IMG/VR virus record: IMGVR_UViG_3300025670_000002
Length of the DNA: 64,000 bases
Direction: 5' to 3' (one strand)
From: a virus
Taxonomy: Duplodnaviria > Heunggongvirae > Uroviricota > Caudoviricetes
The notes beneath the pieces were generated by a model. It had not been told where the DNA came from, did no database searches, and saw only the letters and a program-made list of their open reading frames with translations. Both the position numbers and the translations under genes were made by a program. Shown here in pieces: positions 7,867 to 48,448 of the stretch; within the stretch, counting starts at the first letter, position 1; each line of letters begins with the position of its first letter.

Positions 7867-8477
7867 TGGATGATAAATTGAGCGTTAGTGAGAGTAAAGG
7901 TTTGGGCAACAACCATACAATGTGGTGCGACAAGCATGACCAGCGCAGACATTATGGCGCATGCATTTGGCAAGTCGAAGCTTATGACGAAGATAGACTT
8001 GAGACTGGCGAGCATAACGACTGTGCAAACGCCATGTGTGCGGGTAACTGCGTTGCTAAAAAAATGCGCGAAGAGGAGATTGCCGCTGGACATGCGATTT
8101 ACTTTAGAGAAAAGAATGTGGTAAATAAGCACGAAAGCGTGGTTAATACGGTCAAGAATGACAGCTACAAGCGCGGATGGAATCAGGTTGGGTCAAGTGC
8201 TGGCAAAACAGATGACAACTATGAAGTGGCGGGGATTCCGAGAGCCGTAGTTAAGAGAATTGAGCGGCATTCCGATAGTGCACCAATTGTCAAAACTGTC
8301 GATATGGCTGATGTAATTACAAAAGCTGTTGCGGAAGAGTCAAAGAAAATTTCAATGGCTGAATTTGTAAAAATGAAAAGAGAAGTGATACTTCTGTCAA
8401 AGACAAATATGGCGAAAGCCAAAAAGCTCTTGATTGAGGTAAAGAGAATTGAATCAAATAACTTAGTGACTGCATAA
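7851..8477 (+). CDS. hypothetical Cys/His-rich protein
   Basis: 208-aa ORF coupled to the upstream gene. Contains a CDKHDQRRHYGAC..HNDCANAMCAGNC cluster suggesting metal binding. Confidence 0.5.
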   Translation: MGVVVMDDKLSVSESKGLGNNHTMWCDKHDQRRHYGACIWQVEAYDEDRLETGEHNDCANAMCAGNCVAKKMREEEIAAGHAIYFREKNVVNKHESVVNTVKNDSYKRGWNQVGSSAGKTDDNYEVAGIPRAVVKRIERHSDSAPIVKTVDMADVITKAVAEESKKISMAEFVKMKREVILLSKTNMAKAKKLLIEVKRIESNNLVTA

Positions 8478-8487
8478 GGGCATAGAT

Positions 8488-10395
8488 ATGAATGAAAAAA
8501 TGATAGAAGCGATAAAGGGTGTTGAGATTGGCGTCTCAAGTGGCAGACTTAAGATGAGCGACGTTAGCGACAGTTCGCTCTCCAATATGATTGACAAATG
8601 TAATCTCGAATACCGAAAGGGTAACGCGGTAGTCAGTGATGACTTTTACGACCACACCCTAATTGCGGAGCAGAAGCGCAGAAACCCCGACATAGAGGAT
8701 GAGCTTGAGATTGAGCCTGAGCTAATAAGCGGCAAGACTGTTGAATTGCCACAGCGTATGCTGTCAACTGACAAGGCGTATGATGCTGAGTCAATCAAAA
8801 AATGGATTACAAAAGTTCTTGCCGTCGGCGACACCTATGTAAAAGTAACACCGAAGCTTGATGGGTTTGCAACGTATGATGATGGCGAAAATCTCTACAC
8901 TCGCGGAAACGGATACAGAGGGACTGACATTACGCATGTGATAAATCGCGGAATCAAGATCGTGGGTGACGCCAGAGGAATGGGCCCTGGTGAAATTGTC
9001 ATAAACAAAGCTTATTTTGAAAAGCGTCTTGCTGACCATTTTGACAATTCAAGAAATGTTATCTCCAGTGTTATCAAAGAGGGTGAGTTGAGTCCCGTGA
9101 TTGCAACCGCGATGGCATGGGGCGCTGTTGTGTTCGCACCATTTGCTGAGATAAATCATATAATAGTTAGAGACAGACGCGAGGTAGAAAATATCTCCGA
9201 CATGATTGATAAGTTGTGGGCTGACTTAGTTGATGGGTCAAAATACGACACAGATGGGCTTGTGTTTGAGGCAACAAGCGACTCAGTGAAGAAAGAAATG
9301 GGGCACACAAGTCATCATCACAGATGGCAGATTGCTTACAAGCGCAACACTGAGTATAAGGACGTCAAAGTTCTCTCGATAACAAATCAAACTGGCAAGA
9401 CGGGTGTAATTACGCCCGTTGCAGAGCTTGACCCGACTAGAATATCAGGCGCAGTATTAAGCAGAGCAACCTGTCACAACTGGGGCAATGTGTTAAAAAT
9501 GGGTATCGGTGCTGGATGCACAGTAAGAGTGTTTCGATCAGGCTTAGTGATTCCATACATTGAAAAGGTTGTTGAGCATACGCAAACAGAAGCGATGCCT
9601 GATAAGTGCCCAAGCTGCGGTGCAGAAACAGAGTTGTCAAAATGTGGAACGCATTTGTCATGCACAAACAACACTGACTGTTCGGCGCAAGTAGAAGGTA
9701 TCATTGAGTATTGGTTCAAGACACTTGGTAATTGTGATGGGTTCGGACCAAAAGTAATTGCTGATATTGTTGGGTATGGCGTTGATAAGGTCAAAATGAT
9801 TTACGACTTAAATCAAGCTAATTTTGAAAACGCAGGATTAGGGGCTGGCATATCTGCAAACTTACTGTCCGAACTCGAAAGAAGCAGAACGGAGCAAATT
9901 GAAGACTGGCGATTTCTAGCTGCCTTCTCAATACATAATGTCGGGAAGGGAGGGTGTGAGCGGTTGCTAAAGCACCATAGACTTCTTGATATATTTGAAC
10001 TAACGGCAGACGATGTTGTTGAGATTGATGGCTTTGCTGAGAAAACAGCCAAAATTTTAGTTGATACATTGGAGAGAATTAAGCCCGACTTCGATTATCT
10101 TCACTCGTTGGGGTTCAATCTATCTGAAACACCGCTTGAGGGTGAGCTAGAAGCTGTTGACAGCCCGATAAGCGGTAAGACAATTGTTGTTACGGGTTCT
10201 CTACAAACGGGAAGCAGAAACGACATACATGACAAAATAAAAAGCATGGGTGGTATCGTAGGAAAAGCAGTGTCGGGGAAGACAGATATTTTAGTAATCG
10301 GCGAGAAGGTTGGTGAGTCAAAGTTGAAGGCGGCCACTAAGCATGGAACTGAGGTGATTGCAGAAAAAGCTTTTGTAGAAATGATGGGCGATTGA
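8488..10395 (+). CDS. ligA: NAD-dependent DNA ligase (LigA)
   Basis: KxDG adenylation motif (VTPKLDGFA). Zn finger CPSCG..x..CTNNTDC. C-terminal BRCT-like GKTIVVTGSL...ILVIGEKVG. Confidence 0.85.
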   Translation: MNEKMIEAIKGVEIGVSSGRLKMSDVSDSSLSNMIDKCNLEYRKGNAVVSDDFYDHTLIAEQKRRNPDIEDELEIEPELISGKTVELPQRMLSTDKAYDAESIKKWITKVLAVGDTYVKVTPKLDGFATYDDGENLYTRGNGYRGTDITHVINRGIKIVGDARGMGPGEIVINKAYFEKRLADHFDNSRNVISSVIKEGELSPVIATAMAWGAVVFAPFAEINHIIVRDRREVENISDMIDKLWADLVDGSKYDTDGLVFEATSDSVKKEMGHTSHHHRWQIAYKRNTEYKDVKVLSITNQTGKTGVITPVAELDPTRISGAVLSRATCHNWGNVLKMGIGAGCTVRVFRSGLVIPYIEKVVEHTQTEAMPDKCPSCGAETELSKCGTHLSCTNNTDCSAQVEGIIEYWFKTLGNCDGFGPKVIADIVGYGVDKVKMIYDLNQANFENAGLGAGISANLLSELERSRTEQIEDWRFLAAFSIHNVGKGGCERLLKHHRLLDIFELTADDVVEIDGFAEKTAKILVDTLERIKPDFDYLHSLGFNLSETPLEGELEAVDSPISGKTIVVTGSLQTGSRNDIHDKIKSMGGIVGKAVSGKTDILVIGEKVGESKLKAATKHGTEVIAEKAFVEMMGD

Positions 10396-10442
10396 TAGTT
10401 GCCGTAACTTAGTGATAACATTTCATACTATAAGGAGGTGGT

Positions 10443-10802
10443 ATGAAAAAAGAAACACTAGGTATTGACGACATTTGCGCTTATCTTGGCGAAATGCCGC
10501 AAGTTAGTAAGTATGCAATATGCTACTGTGTCTTTCAGGACATAGCGATAGAGGAGGTTATAAATCTAAAGTGGACTGACGACGTTTCAAGCGTCAATCA
10601 CAGGGCGCTTTCAGTTGTTGAAATTCAAAAGCCATCTAGCAGTGTTGACTATGTATTCTGGAGCAAAGAGGATCACTCCAGAATATCAACACTTAGATGG
10701 CAGTTTGAATATTATAGTTGCTGGATCGGATGGCGTTCGTTTCGCAACATGTTTAAAGATGCGGTAGGGATAGACTTTCAAAAATCGATTCCTAATCGCT
10801 AA
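10443..10802 (+). CDS. hypothetical protein
   Basis: 119-aa ORF with RBS GGAGGTGG. No motif recognised. Confidence 0.45.
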   Translation: MKKETLGIDDICAYLGEMPQVSKYAICYCVFQDIAIEEVINLKWTDDVSSVNHRALSVVEIQKPSSSVDYVFWSKEDHSRISTLRWQFEYYSCWIGWRSFRNMFKDAVGIDFQKSIPNR

Positions 10803-11891: not shown

Positions 11892-13919
11892 GTGTGTATG
11901 CCTAATCTAAACATAAGCGCAATTAGAAGTTCTATTGCCGCAATAACAAGAGCTTTGTCCGATAGGGACATAAAAGTAACGAGTCACGGAAGCCAAGCCT
12001 ATGTTCAGTCTGTAGACGGAGTTCCCATAAGAGTGAACGTCCCCAATATACCAGACGAAGCTTCTGAGGAGCTTATTGCCGCAGTTAATGGGTTCTTGGA
12101 TCATGAAGTTGGACATCTTCTTTATACCGATTTTGGCGTAACGAATGATCTGTCAGTTAAGATGGGCAAGGCGGTTTTCGATCTATACAATATAGTTGAG
12201 GACACCCGAATTGAAAGAGAGATGCAGAAGCGCTTCAGAGGGTCGAGAAAGAATTTAGATAGCGTATCCAGTTTCTTTATAAAGAATCACATTGAGCCGA
12301 GCGTCCAGCAAGCAAAAGACGGCGGTGATGAAAAAAGCCTCTACTCAGTTTTGATGATGCCAGCTTTTAGATCGTGGGCTGGCCAGTCAATATTTGGCGA
12401 CTTTATGAGTGACCACTGGGATAGCTTTTCTCCAGTTGCGAAGAAGTTAGATCACTTAGTTGAAAAGTTTCCAAAAGTTAGATCAACTCAGGGCTCTATT
12501 GATTTGGCAATTGAAGTGTATGATGCTTTAAAGCCAGAAGACAAGCCAGAAGATGAGCCAGAAGATGAGCCAGAAGACAAATCTGACGAAAAAGGTGAAG
12601 ATTCTAAATCTGACGAAAAAGGTGAAGATTCTAAATCTGACGAAAAAGGTGAAGATTCTAAATCTGACGAAAAAGGTGAAGATTCTAAATCTGACGAAAA
12701 AGGTGAAGATTCGGATGAAGGCGCTGATGAGGATTCCGATGAAGACTCTGACGAAGAGCCAGAAGACAAATCTGACGAAAAAGGTGAAGATTCCGATGAA
12801 GACTCTGACGAAGACTCTGGCGGTGGTAGCGGCGGCTCAGAGGATTCAGACAGCAAAGATAAATCGGGTGACGAACCAAGTGATGCTTCTGATGCAGGCG
12901 GTAGGGATTTTGAAGTAGATGATGCCGCAGAATTTGATGTAGAAAGTTTGATGGAAGACGCTGTTGATTTTGACGAGGCGGTTGCTTCTGAAATATCAAA
13001 GATGGCTGCCTTAGCTGTGATTGAATCGGAATATAGAGTTTTTACGACAGACGAGGATGTAGTGGAGCCGTTCAAAGTCGGTAGTGGGTATGACGACAGC
13101 ATGATCGCGGAAATGGATGACTCAACAAAGAAATTAGTTGGTCCACTTCAAAAAACAATTGAAAGATTGGTGATAGCAAAGTCTCACTCCAGAAATGTGC
13201 CAGGAAAGACATCTGGCAGAGTCAATTCGTCGTCACTCTTTAGATTGAAAACTGGCGACAACAGAGTGTTTAAGCAAAAAGAAGAGGCGGAGACAAAAGA
13301 TGTTGCCGTAAGTCTCGTTGTTGATTGCTCAGGGTCGATGAATGGTGAGTATATTAAAATAGCATTGCAAAGTGCGTATGCCCTATCAACGGTTCTTTCG
13401 AGATTGAATATCTCAAATGAGGTAATCGGATTCACAACAAAGACCCCAAAATCAAGAAGTTACTCAAGGGAGATGCATGACGAACGTGAGAGACTTGGGG
13501 TTTCATACTCGCGAACAGAGCCGATATACATGCCGATATTCAAAGGGTTTGATGAGAAGCTGGGTGTTGAGCAAAAGAAAAGAATGGCGTATGGCTACAG
13601 AAGCTCTGGGTATCTAAGAAACAACGTTGATGGCGAAAGCGTAGTGATTGCGGCTAAGAGATTGATGCAGCGTCCTGAGATTGGAAAAAAGATGTTTGTC
13701 TTGTCCGATGGTAGGCCGTGTGCTGATGGGGATTTTGCCGCTATGGACAGAGACCTTGTGGAATCGGTCAGAAAAATAGAAAATAGCGGCGTAGGTGTGG
13801 TTGGGATTGGAATTGGTGACGACTGTGTTAGGCGCTACTACAGTAAGAATGTGGTAATAACAGGTGTTGATGAGCTACCTGACTTAATAATGAAGGAGTT
13901 GAAGAATTTATTGGTTTAA
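11892..13919 (+). CDS. cobT: CobT-like protein: N-terminal HExxH-like metal site, acidic repeat linker, C-terminal vWA domain
   Basis: DHEVGHLLY near the N-terminus. Tandem SDEKGEDSK repeats in the middle. vWA MIDAS motif VVDCSGSM near the C-terminus. Followed by a CobS-like AAA gene. Confidence 0.7.
   Translation: MCMPNLNISAIRSSIAAITRALSDRDIKVTSHGSQAYVQSVDGVPIRVNVPNIPDEASEELIAAVNGFLDHEVGHLLYTDFGVTNDLSVKMGKAVFDLYNIVEDTRIEREMQKRFRGSRKNLDSVSSFFIKNHIEPSVQQAKDGGDEKSLYSVLMMPAFRSWAGQSIFGDFMSDHWDSFSPVAKKLDHLVEKFPKVRSTQGSIDLAIEVYDALKPEDKPEDEPEDEPEDKSDEKGEDSKSDEKGEDSKSDEKGEDSKSDEKGEDSKSDEKGEDSDEGADEDSDEDSDEEPEDKSDEKGEDSDEDSDEDSGGGSGGSEDSDSKDKSGDEPSDASDAGGRDFEVDDAAEFDVESLMEDAVDFDEAVASEISKMAALAVIESEYRVFTTDEDVVEPFKVGSGYDDSMIAEMDDSTKKLVGPLQKTIERLVIAKSHSRNVPGKTSGRVNSSSLFRLKTGDNRVFKQKEEAETKDVAVSLVVDCSGSMNGEYIKIALQSAYALSTVLSRLNISNEVIGFTTKTPKSRSYSREMHDERERLGVSYSRTEPIYMPIFKGFDEKLGVEQKKRMAYGYRSSGYLRNNVDGESVVIAAKRLMQRPEIGKKMFVLSDGRPCADGDFAAMDRDLVESVRKIENSGVGVVGIGIGDDCVRRYYSKNVVITGVDELPDLIMKELKNLLV
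12579..12713 (+). repeat. five tandem copies of a 27-nt unit AAATCTGACGAAAAAGGTGAAGATTCT (one further copy at 12769-12795), encoding SDEKGEDSK
   Basis: Direct repeats read from the DNA. Confidence 0.9.
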
Positions 13920-15208: not shown

Positions 15209-15790
15209 GTGAATCCAGGGTGTTACGGTAGTGTCGCTTGCCACAATGAAGACAGTGACGCCTGTGCTAATTGCAGCCTGCTTAGTGAGTGTCATGAAGT
15301 GGCGTATAAGTCACTTCTTGAACTAAGTTCGGTAATGGATGTTGAGCACATCTTGAGGCGCTATCAGCAAAGTAGAATTAGATCAGGTGGTGAAGCACCC
15401 AAGAATATGGCGAGCTCAGGTAAGCGAGTTGAGCTAACTTCATACCAAAGAAGCATAGTTGATAATGAAAATTTCCCAGTAAAGTCTAGGAAAATGGCTG
15501 GTGCAATTTTTGCAAAGGGGATGGATGGGGGGCTGATTAGAAAGATGATATTCAACAAGGTAAATCCGTTTAAAGATGCAACCCCAGCGATTATGGACAT
15601 TTGCTGTGACCTATTGATAGCCAGAAGGCTAACTGCGGTAAATATGAACAGAGGGATTATCGATAGAAGTCAGAGGTCACTAAGTTACAAAACGGTAAAG
15701 TCCCAAGCATCCGTTGCGATAACCACGCTAATGCTAATGGGGGTCGTTGAGAGGTCAGGGCTTGACTATATATTGAGGAGAAAAAAGTGA
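15209..15790 (+). CDS. hypothetical protein with an N-terminal Cys cluster
   Basis: 193-aa ORF. Contains CYGSVACHNEDSDACANCSLLSEC. Confidence 0.45.
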   Translation: MNPGCYGSVACHNEDSDACANCSLLSECHEVAYKSLLELSSVMDVEHILRRYQQSRIRSGGEAPKNMASSGKRVELTSYQRSIVDNENFPVKSRKMAGAIFAKGMDGGLIRKMIFNKVNPFKDATPAIMDICCDLLIARRLTAVNMNRGIIDRSQRSLSYKTVKSQASVAITTLMLMGVVERSGLDYILRRKK

Positions 15791-18168
15791 GTAGAGAAAT
15801 TACTGGTTATTTACTGGCAACGCGATCTCACTTTTCGCTTGGCGAGAGTATGTTGTCGCCAAAAGAAATTGTGAAGACTGCAAAGGACAGAGGGCATCAT
15901 ACAGTTGCTCTCACAGACACAATGACGGTATCGGGAATGATGGAGTTCTCAAGTGCCGCAAAAGAGCATGATATTAAGGCGATCATAGGTTGCCGACTTC
16001 GCATCGTTATGGACTTGGCTTACAGAAAGCCAAAGCGATCTGAAATTGCTATGCCAAAAGATAACCCAGAGTGGTATCCAAAGGTGTATGTGAAAAACAA
16101 ACAAGGCATGACTGATCTCTTAGGAATGCTGTCGGTAGCAAATGACGAAGACCACTTTTTTCACGTCGCAAGATTGAGTCTAAAGGACTTACTTGTGTGC
16201 CTAAAGAAAGGAAATTTGGCAGTATCGACAGGCGACATGAACGGATTGTTTCATGTAAGCTGCAATAAGTATAATTACAAGCGTATATGTGAGTTATTAA
16301 ACATGCACGCAAGCAAATCCAATGTGTTTTTAGAGCATTCTATTGTTAATACTATACTCAGTGACACACTAGCAAAAAAAGTCGCTAAGATCGCATTAGA
16401 GAGCGAGGCTCAGACAATAGCAACGTATCCCGTTCTTTATAAAAATGAAGAAGATGCGGACACACTAGATGTTTTGGCTACCATTGTTCAAAACAATAAA
16501 ATAACAGACCCCTGGCGACATATCCCATACATCAGAAATTTCAGCCTAAAGTTTCCTGAAAAATATGTAAAGGACATGATTGACGCAAGTGCTAGATTAA
16601 AAGCCGATGGCGTTAGTATTAGCATGAAGAGATCGCTTGCTGGTGCAAAAGCACTGTCCGATATGTGTGAGTATGTTTGGGAGGTTCAGGAAATTTCGCT
16701 ACCAAAGATTGTCGAAAATGAGCACAGAGCCTTGATGGCTGAGGTTGCTAAGGGGTGGAATAGAAGAATCAAGGTTGAAACTCTGGGATACAAGCCTGAT
16801 CCATCGCTAATTCCAGTATACAAAGAGCGTCTTGCCTATGAAATTGGCATTCTTAATAGAATGGGGTTCGAGCGTTATTTCCTAGTTGTTCAAGACTTGG
16901 TAATGTGGGCGAGAGATAGCAATATTTTTGTTGGGCCAGGAAGGGGGTCTGATGGGGGCAGCTTGGTTGCATACCTTATGGGAATAACAGATGTTGACCC
17001 AATTAGATTTAATCTGATTTTCGAGCGATTTATCAATCCAGATCGACTTGATTTGCCAGATGCAGATTTGGATTTTATGTCAACGAGACGACATGAGGTT
17101 ATTCAATATCTAATTGACAAATACGGGCAGGACTATGTTGCTGGAATTTCAAACTATTCAACACTTGCATCTGCATCCGCACTTAGGGATTGCGGAAGGG
17201 TATATGGCATGTCTGGATTTGATCTATCTGCAACAAAGCTAGTTCCAAAAGAAGGGGGTAAGTCAGCAACGCTAACAGAGGCGGCTGAATTAGTTCCAGA
17301 AATTCAAGAGTTTAGAGATGCAAATGTTGATGTGTGGCGACACGCAACGAAGCTTGAGGGCGTAATGCGTAACATGGGTAAACATGCTGCTGGAGTTGTT
17401 GTGGCAAGTGTTCCGATTACAAATAGAGCCGTCGTTGAGAAGCGTTCTGGGGCAATGGTTGCTAACTGGGACAAGAGAAGCATCGAAGATCAAGGCTTAG
17501 TTAAGATTGATATTTTGGGGCTATCAACGCTTGATGTATTGCAAATAGCTGTGGACTACATCGAACAAAGAACTGGTGAGTTTATCGAGCTTACAAAGTT
17601 GCCAATTGATGATTACGAAACGATGAAGAACTTTGGCATTGGAAATACCGTGTCTGTATTTCAGTTCACATCTGGCGGAATGAGGCATCTGTTGAAAGAG
17701 TTGGCAAGAGGTGGAATGCTGACGTTCGATGATGTATCTGCGGCAACAGCACTGTATAGACCTGGACCTATGGAATCGGGCCTAATGGATGACTATATTG
17801 CAATCAAGCAAGGCATTGCTGATCCAGAGTATGACCATTACTCAATGAAAGGGGCGCTTGAGGTAACGGGTGGTGTGATTATTTACCAAGAGCAAACTAT
17901 GCAGATTGTTAGGGATGTTGCTGGCTTTACGATGGTCGAAGCAGACCATGTTAGGAAGGCTATGGGAAAAAAAGACATGGAGAAAATGAAAGCCCTTAGA
18001 GATAGATTTGTTGAAGGCGCAATGGCGGGGTATGTTGAGATAGAGTTTGATGATGGCACTACTAGAAAAGTCCACAAGATGACTAAATTCTCTGTAAAAG
18101 GGCGTGATGAGAAGGTCACTGTGATGGATATTTTCAAACATGGTTATGAAATCTCAGAGAACATTTAA
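15787..18168 (+). CDS. dnaE: DNA polymerase III alpha (DnaE), N-terminal fragment (PHP plus palm); recognisable similarity stops at ..RDRFVEGAMAG (~nt 18024), followed by a 47-aa unrelated tail
   Basis: PHP motif HFSLGESMLSPKEIVKTAKDRGHHTVALTDTMTVSG. Palm region FERYFLVVQDLVMWAR, GPGRGS, ILGLSTLDV. Confidence 0.8.
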   Translation: MSREITGYLLATRSHFSLGESMLSPKEIVKTAKDRGHHTVALTDTMTVSGMMEFSSAAKEHDIKAIIGCRLRIVMDLAYRKPKRSEIAMPKDNPEWYPKVYVKNKQGMTDLLGMLSVANDEDHFFHVARLSLKDLLVCLKKGNLAVSTGDMNGLFHVSCNKYNYKRICELLNMHASKSNVFLEHSIVNTILSDTLAKKVAKIALESEAQTIATYPVLYKNEEDADTLDVLATIVQNNKITDPWRHIPYIRNFSLKFPEKYVKDMIDASARLKADGVSISMKRSLAGAKALSDMCEYVWEVQEISLPKIVENEHRALMAEVAKGWNRRIKVETLGYKPDPSLIPVYKERLAYEIGILNRMGFERYFLVVQDLVMWARDSNIFVGPGRGSDGGSLVAYLMGITDVDPIRFNLIFERFINPDRLDLPDADLDFMSTRRHEVIQYLIDKYGQDYVAGISNYSTLASASALRDCGRVYGMSGFDLSATKLVPKEGGKSATLTEAAELVPEIQEFRDANVDVWRHATKLEGVMRNMGKHAAGVVVASVPITNRAVVEKRSGAMVANWDKRSIEDQGLVKIDILGLSTLDVLQIAVDYIEQRTGEFIELTKLPIDDYETMKNFGIGNTVSVFQFTSGGMRHLLKELARGGMLTFDDVSAATALYRPGPMESGLMDDYIAIKQGIADPEYDHYSMKGALEVTGGVIIYQEQTMQIVRDVAGFTMVEADHVRKAMGKKDMEKMKALRDRFVEGAMAGYVEIEFDDGTTRKVHKMTKFSVKGRDEKVTVMDIFKHGYEISENI

Positions 18169-18214
18169 AGAGCCATCTTGTTAGCCAGCTCTCACGCGGT
18201 ATAATATTATTTTT

Positions 18215-18236
18215 AATAAGTAAGTAGTGACCTATT
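18215..18236 (+). promoter_or_regulatory. family A motif AATAAGTAAGTAGTGACCTATT directly upstream of the HNH endonuclease gene
   Basis: Core shared with the other family A copies. Lies inside the dnaE interruption. Confidence 0.4.
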
Positions 18237-18240
18237 AAAT

Positions 18241-18966
18241 ATGAGATACGAGATTGAACAGAGTTGGCTTGCTGATGAGTATGTCGGTAAATTAAGGAGT
18301 GTTGTTGATATTGCTAACGACATTGGATGCAGCACTCACAACATCAAAAAAAAGCTTAGTTACTGGGGGATAAAGAGGGGTAAAGCCGCCATTGTAAATA
18401 AGCCGTCTTGGAATAAAGGGTTAACAAGAGAGGCTGATGAAAGAGTTGAGAGGTATGCAAAGAGCAAGGATGGTTCTTTAAATCCAATGTTTGGTAAAAA
18501 AGCGTGGAATAAGGGCGTTGGTGTAGAGGATGAACGCGTGTTTAGAATGACCGCAGCGATGCGAAAGGGCTTTGACTCAGAAGAGACGAGGTTGAAGATG
18601 AGTGCCGCCAAGACGGGGTTGAGAGGTGAGGATACGAATAACTGGGGTGGGGGTGTATGGAAGCCAGGAGGTTCTGGTTACATTCAGATGACAAAGAATG
18701 GCGTCAGACACTATCTTCACAGATACGTTGCGGAGACGGCGATAGGTAGAAAGCTTTTGACGATTGAGGAAGTCCATCATGTAGATATGAATAGGGAAAA
18801 TAACGAACCTGAGAATCTACTTGTTATAAGAGCGAGAGATCACACAGCCCTGCATTCAGCAATGAGTCACGAACGTATTGAGAATCAAGTCGAATGGCTT
18901 GTTAATAATAACATTTGGCACTTGGAGATAGGAAAGATTGAAGATAAAAAACATAAAACAGCTTAG
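18241..18966 (+). mobile_element. free-standing HNH homing endonuclease gene inserted in dnaE
   Basis: Repeated WNKG motifs (NUMOD3-like). HNH box HHVDMNRENNEPENLLVIRARDHTALH. The gene sits between the two dnaE fragments. Confidence 0.75.
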
Positions 18967-20125
18967 AGATGGGATGAGCGAGAGCGGAGCATCTGAGTTG
19001 TTCGATAAGATTGAGAAATTCGCAGGATATTCCTTTAATAAAAGTCATGCAGTTGAGTATTCCGTAATTAGCTACTGGTGTATGTATTTAAAAACGCATT
19101 ACCCAGCGGAATATTTTGCCGCAACACTAACGGTTGTTGATAAGGACGAAACGCTAAAGGCGACGGTAAATGATGCTAAGAAGAGTGGAATAGTGATCGT
19201 CCCGCCAGACATTAATATCTCAACAGATAGATTTGAGATAAGACATGGGCTGCTTGATGATGAAATGTTTCTATACACGCCATTCAATAAGCTAAAGGGG
19301 TTAAGTGAAAAGACTGCTGCCGCGATAATTCTCGCAAGAGAGTCCAAGTCCGACAAGCTCTTTGAAAGTAAAGAGGACTTTCTAAGCACTGTCAATAAAA
19401 CAAAATGCAATAAGAGGCACCAGGCGGTTCTCGATTCAGTTGGTGCGTTCGCAAGTGTCGAGCCTGATTCAATCCCTGCAAGAAGTCAGGATAGAATCAA
19501 GGATCAAATTGAAATGATGCCTGGGTTGATTGTTGAGTATGTAAAGGCGGATAGACAAACAAAGCTAAATGACATTGCGCCTGAGCTAAATGCAAATGTT
19601 AAAAGATTTAGAGCCTGTTCAGAGTGCGACCTGAAAGATAAGCCGCACTGCATACCGTCAGCGGGAGGGAAAACATTGAAGTTCATGGTTGTCTCAGATA
19701 CCCCTTCTTGGTCAGAAGACAAAGAAGGTGTGATGATGGCTGGGATTAGCTCAAAACCGATTGAGTCAGCAATGAAGGAGGCTGGGGTAAGAAAGTCAAA
19801 CGGGTTCTTTACGTCACTTGTGAGAGCGCAGAAGTCAGACAAAAGACTTACAAATGAGCAGATCAATGGGTGCAAGGGCTTTCTCGATGAAGAGATTGCG
19901 GTAATGAGTCCGCCAGTGATTGTGTGTATGGGTGGGGCATCCATTAGACACTTTGTTCCTGATGTAAAAGGGGGCTGGAAGGACTTGTGTGGCCAAGTTG
20001 TCTACAACAAAGAATTGGATGCAAATATTGTATTCGGAATTAACCCATCAATGACGGCGTTTAGAGATGAGGCGCAAGAAATGATTGATGATGTTTTTAG
20101 AAAGGTTTATGAAATATTAAATTAG
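18938..20125 (+). CDS. dnaE: DnaE C-terminal fragment (fingers FNKSHAVEYS) fused to a family-4 UDG-like domain; the listed start is TTG 18938, and the likelier start is ATG 18974 just after the HNH stop
   Basis: SELFDKIEKFAGYSFNKSHAVEYSVISYWCMYLKTHYPAEYFAATLT matches the DnaE fingers region. The C-terminal ~200 aa carry FMVVSDTPSWSED...CMGGASIRHF...GINPS, which is UDG-superfamily-like. Confidence 0.7.
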   Translation: MKIKNIKQLRDGMSESGASELFDKIEKFAGYSFNKSHAVEYSVISYWCMYLKTHYPAEYFAATLTVVDKDETLKATVNDAKKSGIVIVPPDINISTDRFEIRHGLLDDEMFLYTPFNKLKGLSEKTAAAIILARESKSDKLFESKEDFLSTVNKTKCNKRHQAVLDSVGAFASVEPDSIPARSQDRIKDQIEMMPGLIVEYVKADRQTKLNDIAPELNANVKRFRACSECDLKDKPHCIPSAGGKTLKFMVVSDTPSWSEDKEGVMMAGISSKPIESAMKEAGVRKSNGFFTSLVRAQKSDKRLTNEQINGCKGFLDEEIAVMSPPVIVCMGGASIRHFVPDVKGGWKDLCGQVVYNKELDANIVFGINPSMTAFRDEAQEMIDDVFRKVYEILN

Positions 20126-47666: not shown

Positions 47667-47897
47667 ATGGCAATTACAGCACAGCAACAAACAATCGCAG
47701 CCACTCTCAATATTGCAAATGAAGTAATGCTTGATGGCAGGGTTGATATTGGTAGGCGAATTATGAAAGAAGTATCTGACATAATCGCGGCAGGTGGCAC
47801 AATTGCCATGATGTCGAAGCGTGAAATGGTGTCGTTTATCACTCACAAGATAAATGCTGAAAATGCCAGAAAAGATGATGGCGGGGTGAGTGCGTGA
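47667..47897 (+). CDS. small hypothetical protein
   Basis: 76-aa ORF. Confidence 0.35.
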   Translation: MAITAQQQTIAATLNIANEVMLDGRVDIGRRIMKEVSDIIAAGGTIAMMSKREMVSFITHKINAENARKDDGGVSA

Positions 47898-48448
47898 CAA
47901 CAATCAATGGTCTTGATCTCGAAACTACCGGTCTAAAGCAAGAGGATGGTGAGAGAATTGTAGAAATTTGCATGATCTCCTACGATTTAGAATCGGCAAC
48001 GGAGATCGCTAGATATGAGAAGAGGATCAATCCCAAAAAAAGGATTGAAGCCAAAGCCGAACTCATACACGGCATTTCATTGTCTGAGTTAATGACTGAG
48101 CCTGTGTGGTCGGATGTTGTTGGTGAGATCGGCGAAGTGATTGAATCAAGTGACATCCTTATTGCTCACAATATGGACTTTGATGGCCCGTTCTTAGCAG
48201 GTGAAATGATTCGCGGGGGTCACGATGTTCCAGATGTAAAAAGCTTTTGCACAATGGAGTCTGGAAGATGGGCTACAGCTACAGGCAAAAAACCCTCTCT
48301 TCGTGAGCTGTGCTTTGCATGTGATGTTAAATACAACGTGGCGGAAGCACATGCCGCTACATACGATACGCGAAAAATGATGGATTGCTTTTTCTATGCA
48401 AGAAATCGCGGGTTCTATCAAGACTTTAATGAGTTGGTTGGTGAATAA
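47894..48448 (+). CDS. DnaQ-like DEDDh 3'-5' exonuclease (candidate proofreading subunit for the phage DnaE)
   Basis: Exo I LDLETTGL, Exo II IAHNMDFDGPFL, Exo III HAATYDTRKM. Confidence 0.7.
   Translation: MTTINGLDLETTGLKQEDGERIVEICMISYDLESATEIARYEKRINPKKRIEAKAELIHGISLSELMTEPVWSDVVGEIGEVIESSDILIAHNMDFDGPFLAGEMIRGGHDVPDVKSFCTMESGRWATATGKKPSLRELCFACDVKYNVAEAHAATYDTRKMMDCFFYARNRGFYQDFNELVGE

Follow-up and report, generated by a model that had tools for sequence, protein, structure and literature searches.

In a 64,000-nucleotide (nt) stretch of IMG/VR virus record IMGVR_UViG_3300025670_000002 (Caudoviricetes), hereafter referred to as the window, dnaE, the gene for the alpha subunit of DNA polymerase III (Pol III), is carried in two pieces with an HNH homing endonuclease gene between them. 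The protein ends that face the break, a C-terminal tail on the first fragment and an N-terminal head on the second, together constitute a conserved module of ~59 amino acids (aa) that resembles part of the split inteins of DnaE. Overall, the locus is best explained as a gene in pieces, in which a mobile cassette interrupts dnaE, the tails are derived from an intein, and the two polypeptides would assemble non-covalently with the help of a docking module. We assign this explanation a probability of roughly 0.7, and its individual parts are graded separately below.

Organization of the split dnaE locus

Three co-oriented, separate and intact open reading frames (ORFs), dnaE-N, the endonuclease gene and dnaE-C, make up the locus. 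ORF calls and Pfam domains thus bear out an earlier note, made from the letters of the window, which had read dnaE as two pieces flanking an HNH/NUMOD gene. The features at the break are as follows, where E is the expectation value and A3 and A4 are the sequence profiles described in the next section.

15787..18168, + strand: dnaE-N, N-terminal fragment of Pol III alpha, 793 aa (ORF call and Pfam)
18028..18165, + strand: C-terminal tail of dnaE-N, 46 aa, GYVEIEFDDG...YEISENI (A3 and A4 matches to DnaE split inteins)
18241..18966, + strand: free-standing HNH homing endonuclease gene, 241 aa (Pfam NUMOD3, E 9e-6, and C-terminal HNH_3, E 5e-7)
18924..18928, + strand: GGAGA ribosome-binding site, read from the sequence, 9 nt before the dnaE-C TTG and inside the 3' end of the endonuclease gene
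18938..20125, + strand: dnaE-C, C-terminal fragment of Pol III alpha, 395 aa (ORF, Pfam and aligned C-fragments)
18938..18973, + strand: N-terminal head of dnaE-C, 12 aa, MKIKNIKQLRDG (counterpart of the first C-intein strand in the A4 alignment)

Both fragments are identified as Pol III alpha by profile matches to PDB entries 3e0d and 2hqa, beside their Pfam domains. dnaE-N comprises PHP, DNA_pol3_alpha (palm/thumb) and DNA_pol3_finger, the latter representing the first part of the fingers, and the catalytic motifs LDLPDADLDF and KIDILGL, with their Asp residues, are visible in its translation. Its GTG start (15787) overlaps the stop codon of the upstream ORF. The conserved N-termini of homologues agree with this GTG, and the public Joint Genome Institute (JGI) gene call (P0001, 772 aa) begins 21 codons inside the gene (window 15787-15849). 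dnaE-C contains the remainder of the fingers, the HhH/beta-binding region and a domain resembling uracil-DNA glycosylase (UDG), recognized by Pfam as HHH_6 and UDG PF03167 (E 1.4e-10). Its TTG start sits within the endonuclease gene, creating a 29-nt overlap. This start is supported by the conserved beginnings of stand-alone C-fragments, nearly all of which (n=50 aligned; a few are called slightly longer or shorter) open with M-K-I/V-x-x-x-K..L.DG, and by an identical 29-nt overlap in two related loci, L095 and L097, which hold the closest homologues of the endonuclease.

Relatives without the insertion were used to define where Pol III similarity ends and resumes. It stops at ...FVEGAMAG, as the earlier note had proposed, but with 18030 rather than 18024 as the last base, and resumes at MSESGASELF, whose first base is 18974. 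The break is located within the fingers, at about residue 730 in E. coli alpha numbering. The endonuclease gene has its own ATG at 18241 and is separated from dnaE-N by the dnaE-N stop codon (18166-18168); its 241-aa product falls in the size range of its homologues. dnaE-N and the endonuclease ORF share a reading frame, which was judged a chance event of one in three.

An intein-like module at the break

The tail had been described earlier as a 47-aa unrelated extension. It is, on the contrary, conserved, and appears to be half of an intein-derived module. Tail and head align with a segment that is contiguous in SSU5-type DnaE, and the resulting ~59-aa module is conserved in all split relatives, accompanies the split, and is patchily distributed over the polymerase tree; L008, the closest unsplit relative, lacks the tail segment. 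The consensus reads G-x-x-E-V-E-L-E-D-G-x4-V-H-R-x2-K-F...T-I-E-E... for the tail and M-K-I-x-S-I-K-x-L-x-D-G for the head.

Two profiles, A3 from the tail alone and A4 from tail and head together, were run against the sequences of all PDB chains. Both matched DnaE split inteins (7qil, E 1.9e-5; 1zd7, 2keq and 4kl5, ~1e-4), each as a single stretch over intein residues ~57-100, from block B to the end of the N-intein; for A4 these were the best matches. With the Npu intein, the A4 alignment continues over the natural IntN/IntC break and places the head Met on Met1 of the C-intein, and the 4kl6 match likewise crosses the IntN/IntC junction. The Npu match scored 25-28 bits, compared with a maximum of 11.5 bits in 5000 shuffles, and other single-stretch matches were ~100-1000 times poorer than those to inteins. 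The top ranks of A3 were occupied by three designed repeat proteins, whose scores sum six TVEEAVKRALKL repeats of 4-5 bits each; these were discounted as spurious.

In the AlphaFold model of the joined protein, with a mean predicted local distance difference test (pLDDT) score of 90.9 overall, the tail is predicted as beta-beta-beta-beta-alpha and the head as one strand (residues 796-801 of the joined model), an order of elements that we take to be that of the corresponding part of the Hint fold. Tails carry a mean net charge of -2.7 and heads one of +1.0, in keeping with split-intein assembly, whose capture step is driven by an anionic N-intein and a cationic C-intein (PMC11766414). From these similarities we conclude with good confidence that the tails descend from a split intein, the tail apparently being a remnant of the C-terminal half of the N-intein without its catalytic residues.

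A second dnaE site, which lies between the HhH and UDG domains, carries the same module in L092 (4001-8146) and L094 (4001-8104), where the gap holds a NUMOD4-HNH endonuclease. A third dnaE site, in L093 (1-6638), is interrupted between FQFSS and SGMRHLL by a fully catalytic split intein (Pfam Intein_splicing; the C-intein ends ...VANEIIVHN, followed by S) together with an HNH-like endonuclease. Because this true split intein does not score with the module profile, the module is considered closer to the cyanobacterial type. The contig of L093 also carries an intein with Hom_end_hint and LAGLIDADG domains inside an AAA_5 (CobS-like) gene.

The ~59-aa segment might alternatively be an ordinary lineage-specific insertion of DnaE that resembles inteins and is targeted by endonucleases, with no special role for tail or head. 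SSU5-type polymerases do hold the segment unsplit, weak matches to SH3-like and Tudor-like small barrels exist, and, with the break inside the fingers, native helix packing could keep the halves together. We nevertheless regard this as unlikely, since the intein matches are ~100-1000 times better and collinear up to the intein split point, a homologous module stands at a second, unrelated dnaE position, again with an endonuclease, and the window's closest relative lacks the module, which is patchy on the tree.

It is far less probable still that tail and head form a working, unusually small split intein that joins the DnaE halves by protein trans-splicing. Such a proposal would draw on the homology to DnaE split inteins with a break at the natural split point, on an architecture like that of the fractured genes (PMC2677866), and on the true split intein at another site of the same gene family in L093. 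However, a Hint fold takes at least ~130 aa and the module has ~59, and no splicing residues were found in it. It lacks the first ~56 intein residues, with Cys1 of block A among them, and has neither blocks F and G nor the terminal Asn; TxxH does not stay in register, the invariant His of the module aligning with the intein Thr and not with the intein His; the +1 residue after the module is Met, Leu or Val instead of Cys, Ser or Thr; and module position 2 is F/Y/W/N/T/Q. In addition, the segment is contiguous, with no sign of excision, in cultured SSU5-type DnaE. Judged by these residues, the module cannot splice by any known intein mechanism.

A shorter degenerate insertion (~41 aa, GFVKVKTATNKVEEIHK...) was noticed in two unsplit proteins of 1166-1167 aa, P0015 and P0017, and may represent a re-fused, decaying module.

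Distribution and movement of the split

No match was obtained by megablast of the dnaE region against phages, indicating that the genome has no close cultured relative. By tblastn, its polymerase belongs to a clade with Pseudomonas phage nickie, Rhizobium phage RHEph10, Stenotrophomonas phage ANB28 and the SSU5-like phage-plasmids, in which a CobT-like gene, an AAA_5 gene, dnaE, a gp32-like gene and a 5'-3' exonuclease gene are syntenic. Across 44 loci compared, the junction shows three states: unsplit with a 13-15 aa linker, including L008, the closest relative of the window (~70-72% identity); unsplit with an insertion of ~55-60 aa (SSU5, pJN2-26 and CMS-2020a); and split inside the insertion (the window, L001, L009, L010/11, L013, L023, L025, L027, L036, L038 and L039).

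Homologues were counted in a collection of 5.8 billion proteins. Fragments of 772-792 aa that include the tail account for 28 of the 120 best dnaE-N matches, and ~90 clusters consist of stand-alone C-fragments. The split is therefore shared beyond this genome, the same N-fragment making up about a quarter of the 120 closest homologues. In a neighbor-joining tree of the polymerase core, on which split and unsplit labels were taken from protein lengths, split proteins are dispersed, frequently as sisters of unsplit ones, which argues that the cassette has moved horizontally. A further indication comes from the dnaE genes of the cultured Klebsiella phage Kp4727 and of pJN2-26, which share 93-100% DNA identity except over a tract of ~1.25 kb centered on the cassette (58-77%) and extending from ~380 nt upstream of it to ~150 nt downstream. 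At the level of sequence, this is a classic co-conversion tract and direct evidence of movement.

The gap between the two dnaE pieces is variously filled by an endonuclease of the window type (NUMOD3 plus C-terminal HNH_3), one of another type, truncated copies, or none. Homologues of the window endonuclease (36-46% identity) occupy the gap in L009, L013, L036, L038, L095 and L097, and all homologues whose genomic context was examined sit in this dnaE gap; for four others, the contig has the same length as one that carries a C-fragment. The second family, unrelated to the window type, has NUMOD4, HNH_3 and a helix-turn-helix (HTH) domain. Decayed copies remain in L027 (188 aa) and L023 (63 aa), and L025 and L039 have no endonuclease. 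A site that is occupied, decayed or empty in different relatives constitutes a presence/absence polymorphism at one fixed position; these states match the gain, decay and loss cycle expected of a homing endonuclease, with the split outliving the enzyme.

A selfish element that inserts into an essential gene can inactivate it, and the split dnaE could on that ground be a decaying pseudogene in a phage that relies on the host replicase. There is very little probability in this, as the two fragments are both full-length ORFs, retain catalytic motifs and conserved ends and have start signals of their own, and the two-gene layout is kept in dozens of lineages (45-60% identity), even after decay or loss of the endonuclease.

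Several public records touch on the split. L001 corresponds to PQ492289.1 78184-86347, from the cultured Klebsiella phage vB_KpnS_p4727, whose unannotated record contains a split dnaE; this phage would be a ready experimental system. GArcari-2022a and -2022b (CP101890.1 and CP101896.1, ~8248-10712) show, by match positions, the same ~800-nt gap between two dnaE matches. A dnaE-homologous region of Xanthomonas phage JGB6 (OQ436456.1, 35423-36890) also matches in two pieces; its annotation reads AAA family ATPase and metallophosphoesterase, and a dnaE that is mis-annotated or interrupted is the likely explanation.

Evidence for a split gene without splicing

The earlier note had left two options, a polymerase expressed as two polypeptides or one restored by a group I intron, and had favored a free-standing endonuclease gene; the present results agree with that preference. 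Rfam covariance models returned no group I or group II intron in 17700-19300 at E up to 10, no intron in the whole window at the gathering threshold, and none in six related split loci at E up to 1. The Intron_gpI scan of the junction that the note had suggested is thus negative; matches to mir-12 and snoRNA models fell far below their gathering scores and were treated as noise. No Rfam match to the P3-P9 core of a group I intron was found in the window or its relatives, and there is no room for such a core. Anatomy excludes an intron as well. The endonuclease ORF of L001 has a 4-nt overlap with the dnaE-N stop and terminates 21 nt short of the dnaE-C ATG, and in L039 the split is kept with ~70 nt between the two dnaE genes.

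HNH ORFs are common in phage introns and minimal splice-site rules could be satisfied here (U at 18165, G at 18940, frame restored), but it is scarcely credible that the HNH ORF belongs to a group I or II intron whose removal from the mRNA restores one dnaE frame, given these empty scans and the relatives' anatomy, the mere 72 nt upstream of an ORF that extends 29 nt into dnaE-C, and the conserved start (MKI..) that nearly all stand-alone C-fragments possess. We therefore hold with high confidence that dnaE is a split gene without splicing; its product is most likely two separate polypeptides, and the endonuclease, from this context, is a free-standing gene and not intron-borne.

Proposed mechanism and the role of the module

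According to the gene-in-pieces explanation, a mobile cassette would lie between codons ...GAMAG and MSESG..., comprising the 46-aa tail, a stop, the HNH gene with its control signals, a start and the 12-aa head. DnaE-N (~90 kDa) and DnaE-C (~45 kDa) would be translated separately and assemble non-covalently into an active polymerase. Because the break is inside the fingers, native packing should help assembly. The acidic tail and basic head may additionally refold into a small half-Hint beta module that aids docking, acting as split inteins do in their capture step and like the tails that NrdA-a and NrdA-b carry in phage Aeh1. In mixed infections, the endonuclease would cut dnaE alleles that lack the cassette and thereby spread the cassette as a whole.

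The nearest functional parallel is Aeh1 nrdA-a/mobE/nrdA-b, where a free-standing HNH endonuclease splits an essential gene (Friedrich et al. 2007, as presented in PMC3045599) and, as here, the fragments bear tails. The Aeh1 tails were created by the insertion, retained, and are essential (Crona et al. 2011, PMC3045599). The same authors raised the speculation that these could be what is left of a degenerate split intein, and found no database match (PMC3045599). The tails described here differ in that they make up a conserved family significantly similar to DnaE split inteins, and in their host gene, which is Pol III alpha.

Several observations weigh against the proposed explanation. The Aeh1 tails are dispensable for fragment pairing and needed for dimerization of the heterodimers (PMC3045599); since they serve higher-order assembly and not pairing, the docking role suggested here is an analogy. 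pLDDT is only 72-85 over the module. The intein match stems from a profile of 45-57 positions, amounts to 25-28 bits and effectively involves 2-3 natural inteins, and the IntC sequence in the shuffle test was entered by hand. Single tails compared with Pfam, without a profile search, did not return Intein_splicing and gave weak SH3-like and miscellaneous matches. Finally, the divergence between the window and L008 (~70% identity) is too high for a co-conversion tract to be resolved.

With these points considered, a clamp function of the half-Hint module is proposed by analogy and with moderate confidence. A more specific idea, which we advance tentatively and at somewhat less than even odds, is that tail and head represent a half-intein that was domesticated: a single pseudo-symmetric lobe of a split DnaE-type intein that would have lost catalysis, kept fragment recognition and become a portable non-covalent clamp. 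If true, such a clamp would let homing endonucleases break an essential polymerase at more than one position and leave the phage viable, would supply a sequence-level missing link for the Crona/Edgell proposal that interaction tails come from split inteins, and would constitute a natural minimal non-splicing heterodimerization tag.

Comparison with other known systems

Cyanobacterial split DnaE inteins (Ssp and Npu; 1zd7, 2keq, 4kl5) provide the best module matches, reside in the same host protein family, and are broken at the same position within the Hint fold. They differ in being catalytic, in their size (102-123 aa plus 36 aa), and in being encoded at separate loci without an endonuclease. 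Their insertion point lies ~22 residues further downstream, just before CFNKSH.

The fractured genes reported by Dassa, London, Stoddard, Schueler-Furman and Pietrokovski in 2009 include three metagenomic dnaE loci with complete split inteins (PMC2677866). In both cases a phage-type replication gene, dnaE among them, is broken in two, with intein-derived ends and a free-standing endonuclease and control elements between the pieces. Theirs are complete catalytic split inteins, whereas the module here spans ~59 aa, from block B to the first C-intein strand; as it lacks catalytic residues, no ligation is expected. Their endonucleases are GIY-YIG or Vsr-like, and the authors predicted that HNH enzymes could act likewise (PMC2677866); those found here are HNH enzymes. 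The L093 locus is of the original fractured-gene type but with an HNH enzyme. Split gene 43 (PolB) of T4-related Aeromonas phages and T4 gp39/gp60 similarly have two cistrons with mobile-element DNA between them and a working complex (PMC3045599); they concern another polymerase family and are not known to have intein-like flanks.

It was already known that selfish nucleases break essential phage genes and that, in Aeh1 NrdA, function is rescued by tails whose origin was unknown. The new element is that the tails can be traced to a split intein. Dozens of phage lineages, Klebsiella phage-plasmids among them, have such tails, which stand at two sites of one gene and persist after loss of the nuclease. 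The degenerate-intein idea for split-gene tails thereby becomes directly testable, and the split-dnaE family suggests a compact natural protein-pairing module. Many public records annotate half of this polymerase or none of it.

Control signals at the endonuclease gene

The interval between dnaE-N and the endonuclease gene contains two candidate control signals:

18178..18205, + strand: sigma-70-like promoter match, TTGTTA-16 nt-TATAAT (10/12 positions), between the dnaE-N stop and the endonuclease gene
18216..18235, no strand assigned: copy of the 20-bp palindrome ATAAGT-N8-ACTTAT, ending 5 nt before the endonuclease ATG

Promoter sites of this kind are no commoner in the region than in shuffled sequence, and the match at 18178-18205 is suggestive only. 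The palindromic motif that the earlier note had marked at 18215-18236 is a real repeat, with 4 copies at up to 3 mismatches against 0 expected; its core ATAAGT-N8-ACTTAT (roughly ATAAGTCAyTArTGACTTAT) has 14 copies in the window against 0.3 expected. The starts of the 20-bp copies are listed below.

Window: 4436, 18216, 20331, 20978, 31224, 35900, 37788
Window, continued: 39389, 43095, 47649, 50831, 53436, 54180, 58142
Relatives: L009 6394; L025 6810; L093 4240, 6639; L094 6750

Copies whose surroundings were checked are intergenic, and in L009, L093 and L094 the palindrome stands at the dnaE-N stop or the endonuclease start. No Shine-Dalgarno sequence was found between the palindrome and the endonuclease ATG. 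The palindrome is probably a promoter, operator or hairpin of this phage group; at the endonuclease gene, it could act as a promoter for a near-leaderless mRNA, as an operator, or as a hairpin that limits endonuclease translation. Phages sharing the palindrome encode their own sigma-like factor.

The UDG-fold domain of the C-terminal fragment

The second part of dnaE-C is a separate feature of the polymerase:

19550..20122, + strand: family-4 UDG-fold domain, dnaE-C residues ~205-395 (AlphaFold, Foldseek and residue-level alignments)

The AlphaFold model of dnaE-C has a pLDDT of 92.9. Foldseek matched its UDG domain to 4zbx, 1l9g and 1ui0 (E ~1e-12, target TM-score 0.81-0.83; 4zbx 0.81) and to UdgX, and sequence searches reached E 1e-12 with a single sequence (phmmer) and 1e-20 with a profile. 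The family-4 fold that had been suspected in the C-fragment is therefore genuine, on the agreement of Foldseek (4zbx, E 1e-12) and phmmer (E 1e-12). The view that UDG is an unusual fusion partner for DnaE does not hold for this polymerase, as the domain occurs across the whole phage DnaE clade, also in unsplit members. Carriers include the unsplit DnaE proteins of nickie, RHEph10, ANB28 and SSU5 as well as thousands of metagenomic proteins, and the RHEph10 record and several JGI names already mention the domain. It is an ancestral feature of this clade. Pfam found no OB fold or tau-binding domain in dnaE-C, and the UDG-fold domain fills that position of bacterial alpha.

The catalytic motifs, which the earlier note had proposed to check, are altered. 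In the window, GE[AG]PG is replaced by SDTPS, GRPFVG by GVMMAG, with loss of the stacking Phe, TN..KC by TS..RA, and the His of motif B by Asn (INP); these changes are common to the whole DnaE-UDG family. Among the Fe-S ligands, the CxxC pair and a third Cys align, the cysteine of KC is Ala, and several relatives have none of them. Compared with family-4 UDGs and UdgX (4zbx, 1l9g, 1ui0, 6ajo), the domain shares the fold and, in the window, the aligned CxxC pair and third Fe-S cysteine, but its catalytic motifs are replaced and it is fused to a polymerase, whereas theirs stand alone. The domain would probably bind DNA or sense uracil and not act as a standard uracil glycosylase. The vaccinia D4 UDG serves as a polymerase processivity subunit and offers a possible analogy. 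In the open-access literature, no description of a DnaE-UDG fusion or of split dnaE in SSU5-like phages was found, and the conserved fusion of a polymerase with a UDG fold represents a hitherto unstudied feature of a large phage clade.

Other genes in the window

A separate DnaQ-like exonuclease, as the earlier note had reported, is encoded away from the dnaE locus:

47894..48448, + strand: DnaQ-like DEDD 3'-5' exonuclease, candidate proofreading subunit (Pfam RNase_T, E 2.5e-19)

Upstream of dnaE, a CobT/VWA-like ORF (window 11892-13919) contains a long acidic low-complexity stretch with repeated KSDEKGEDS units.

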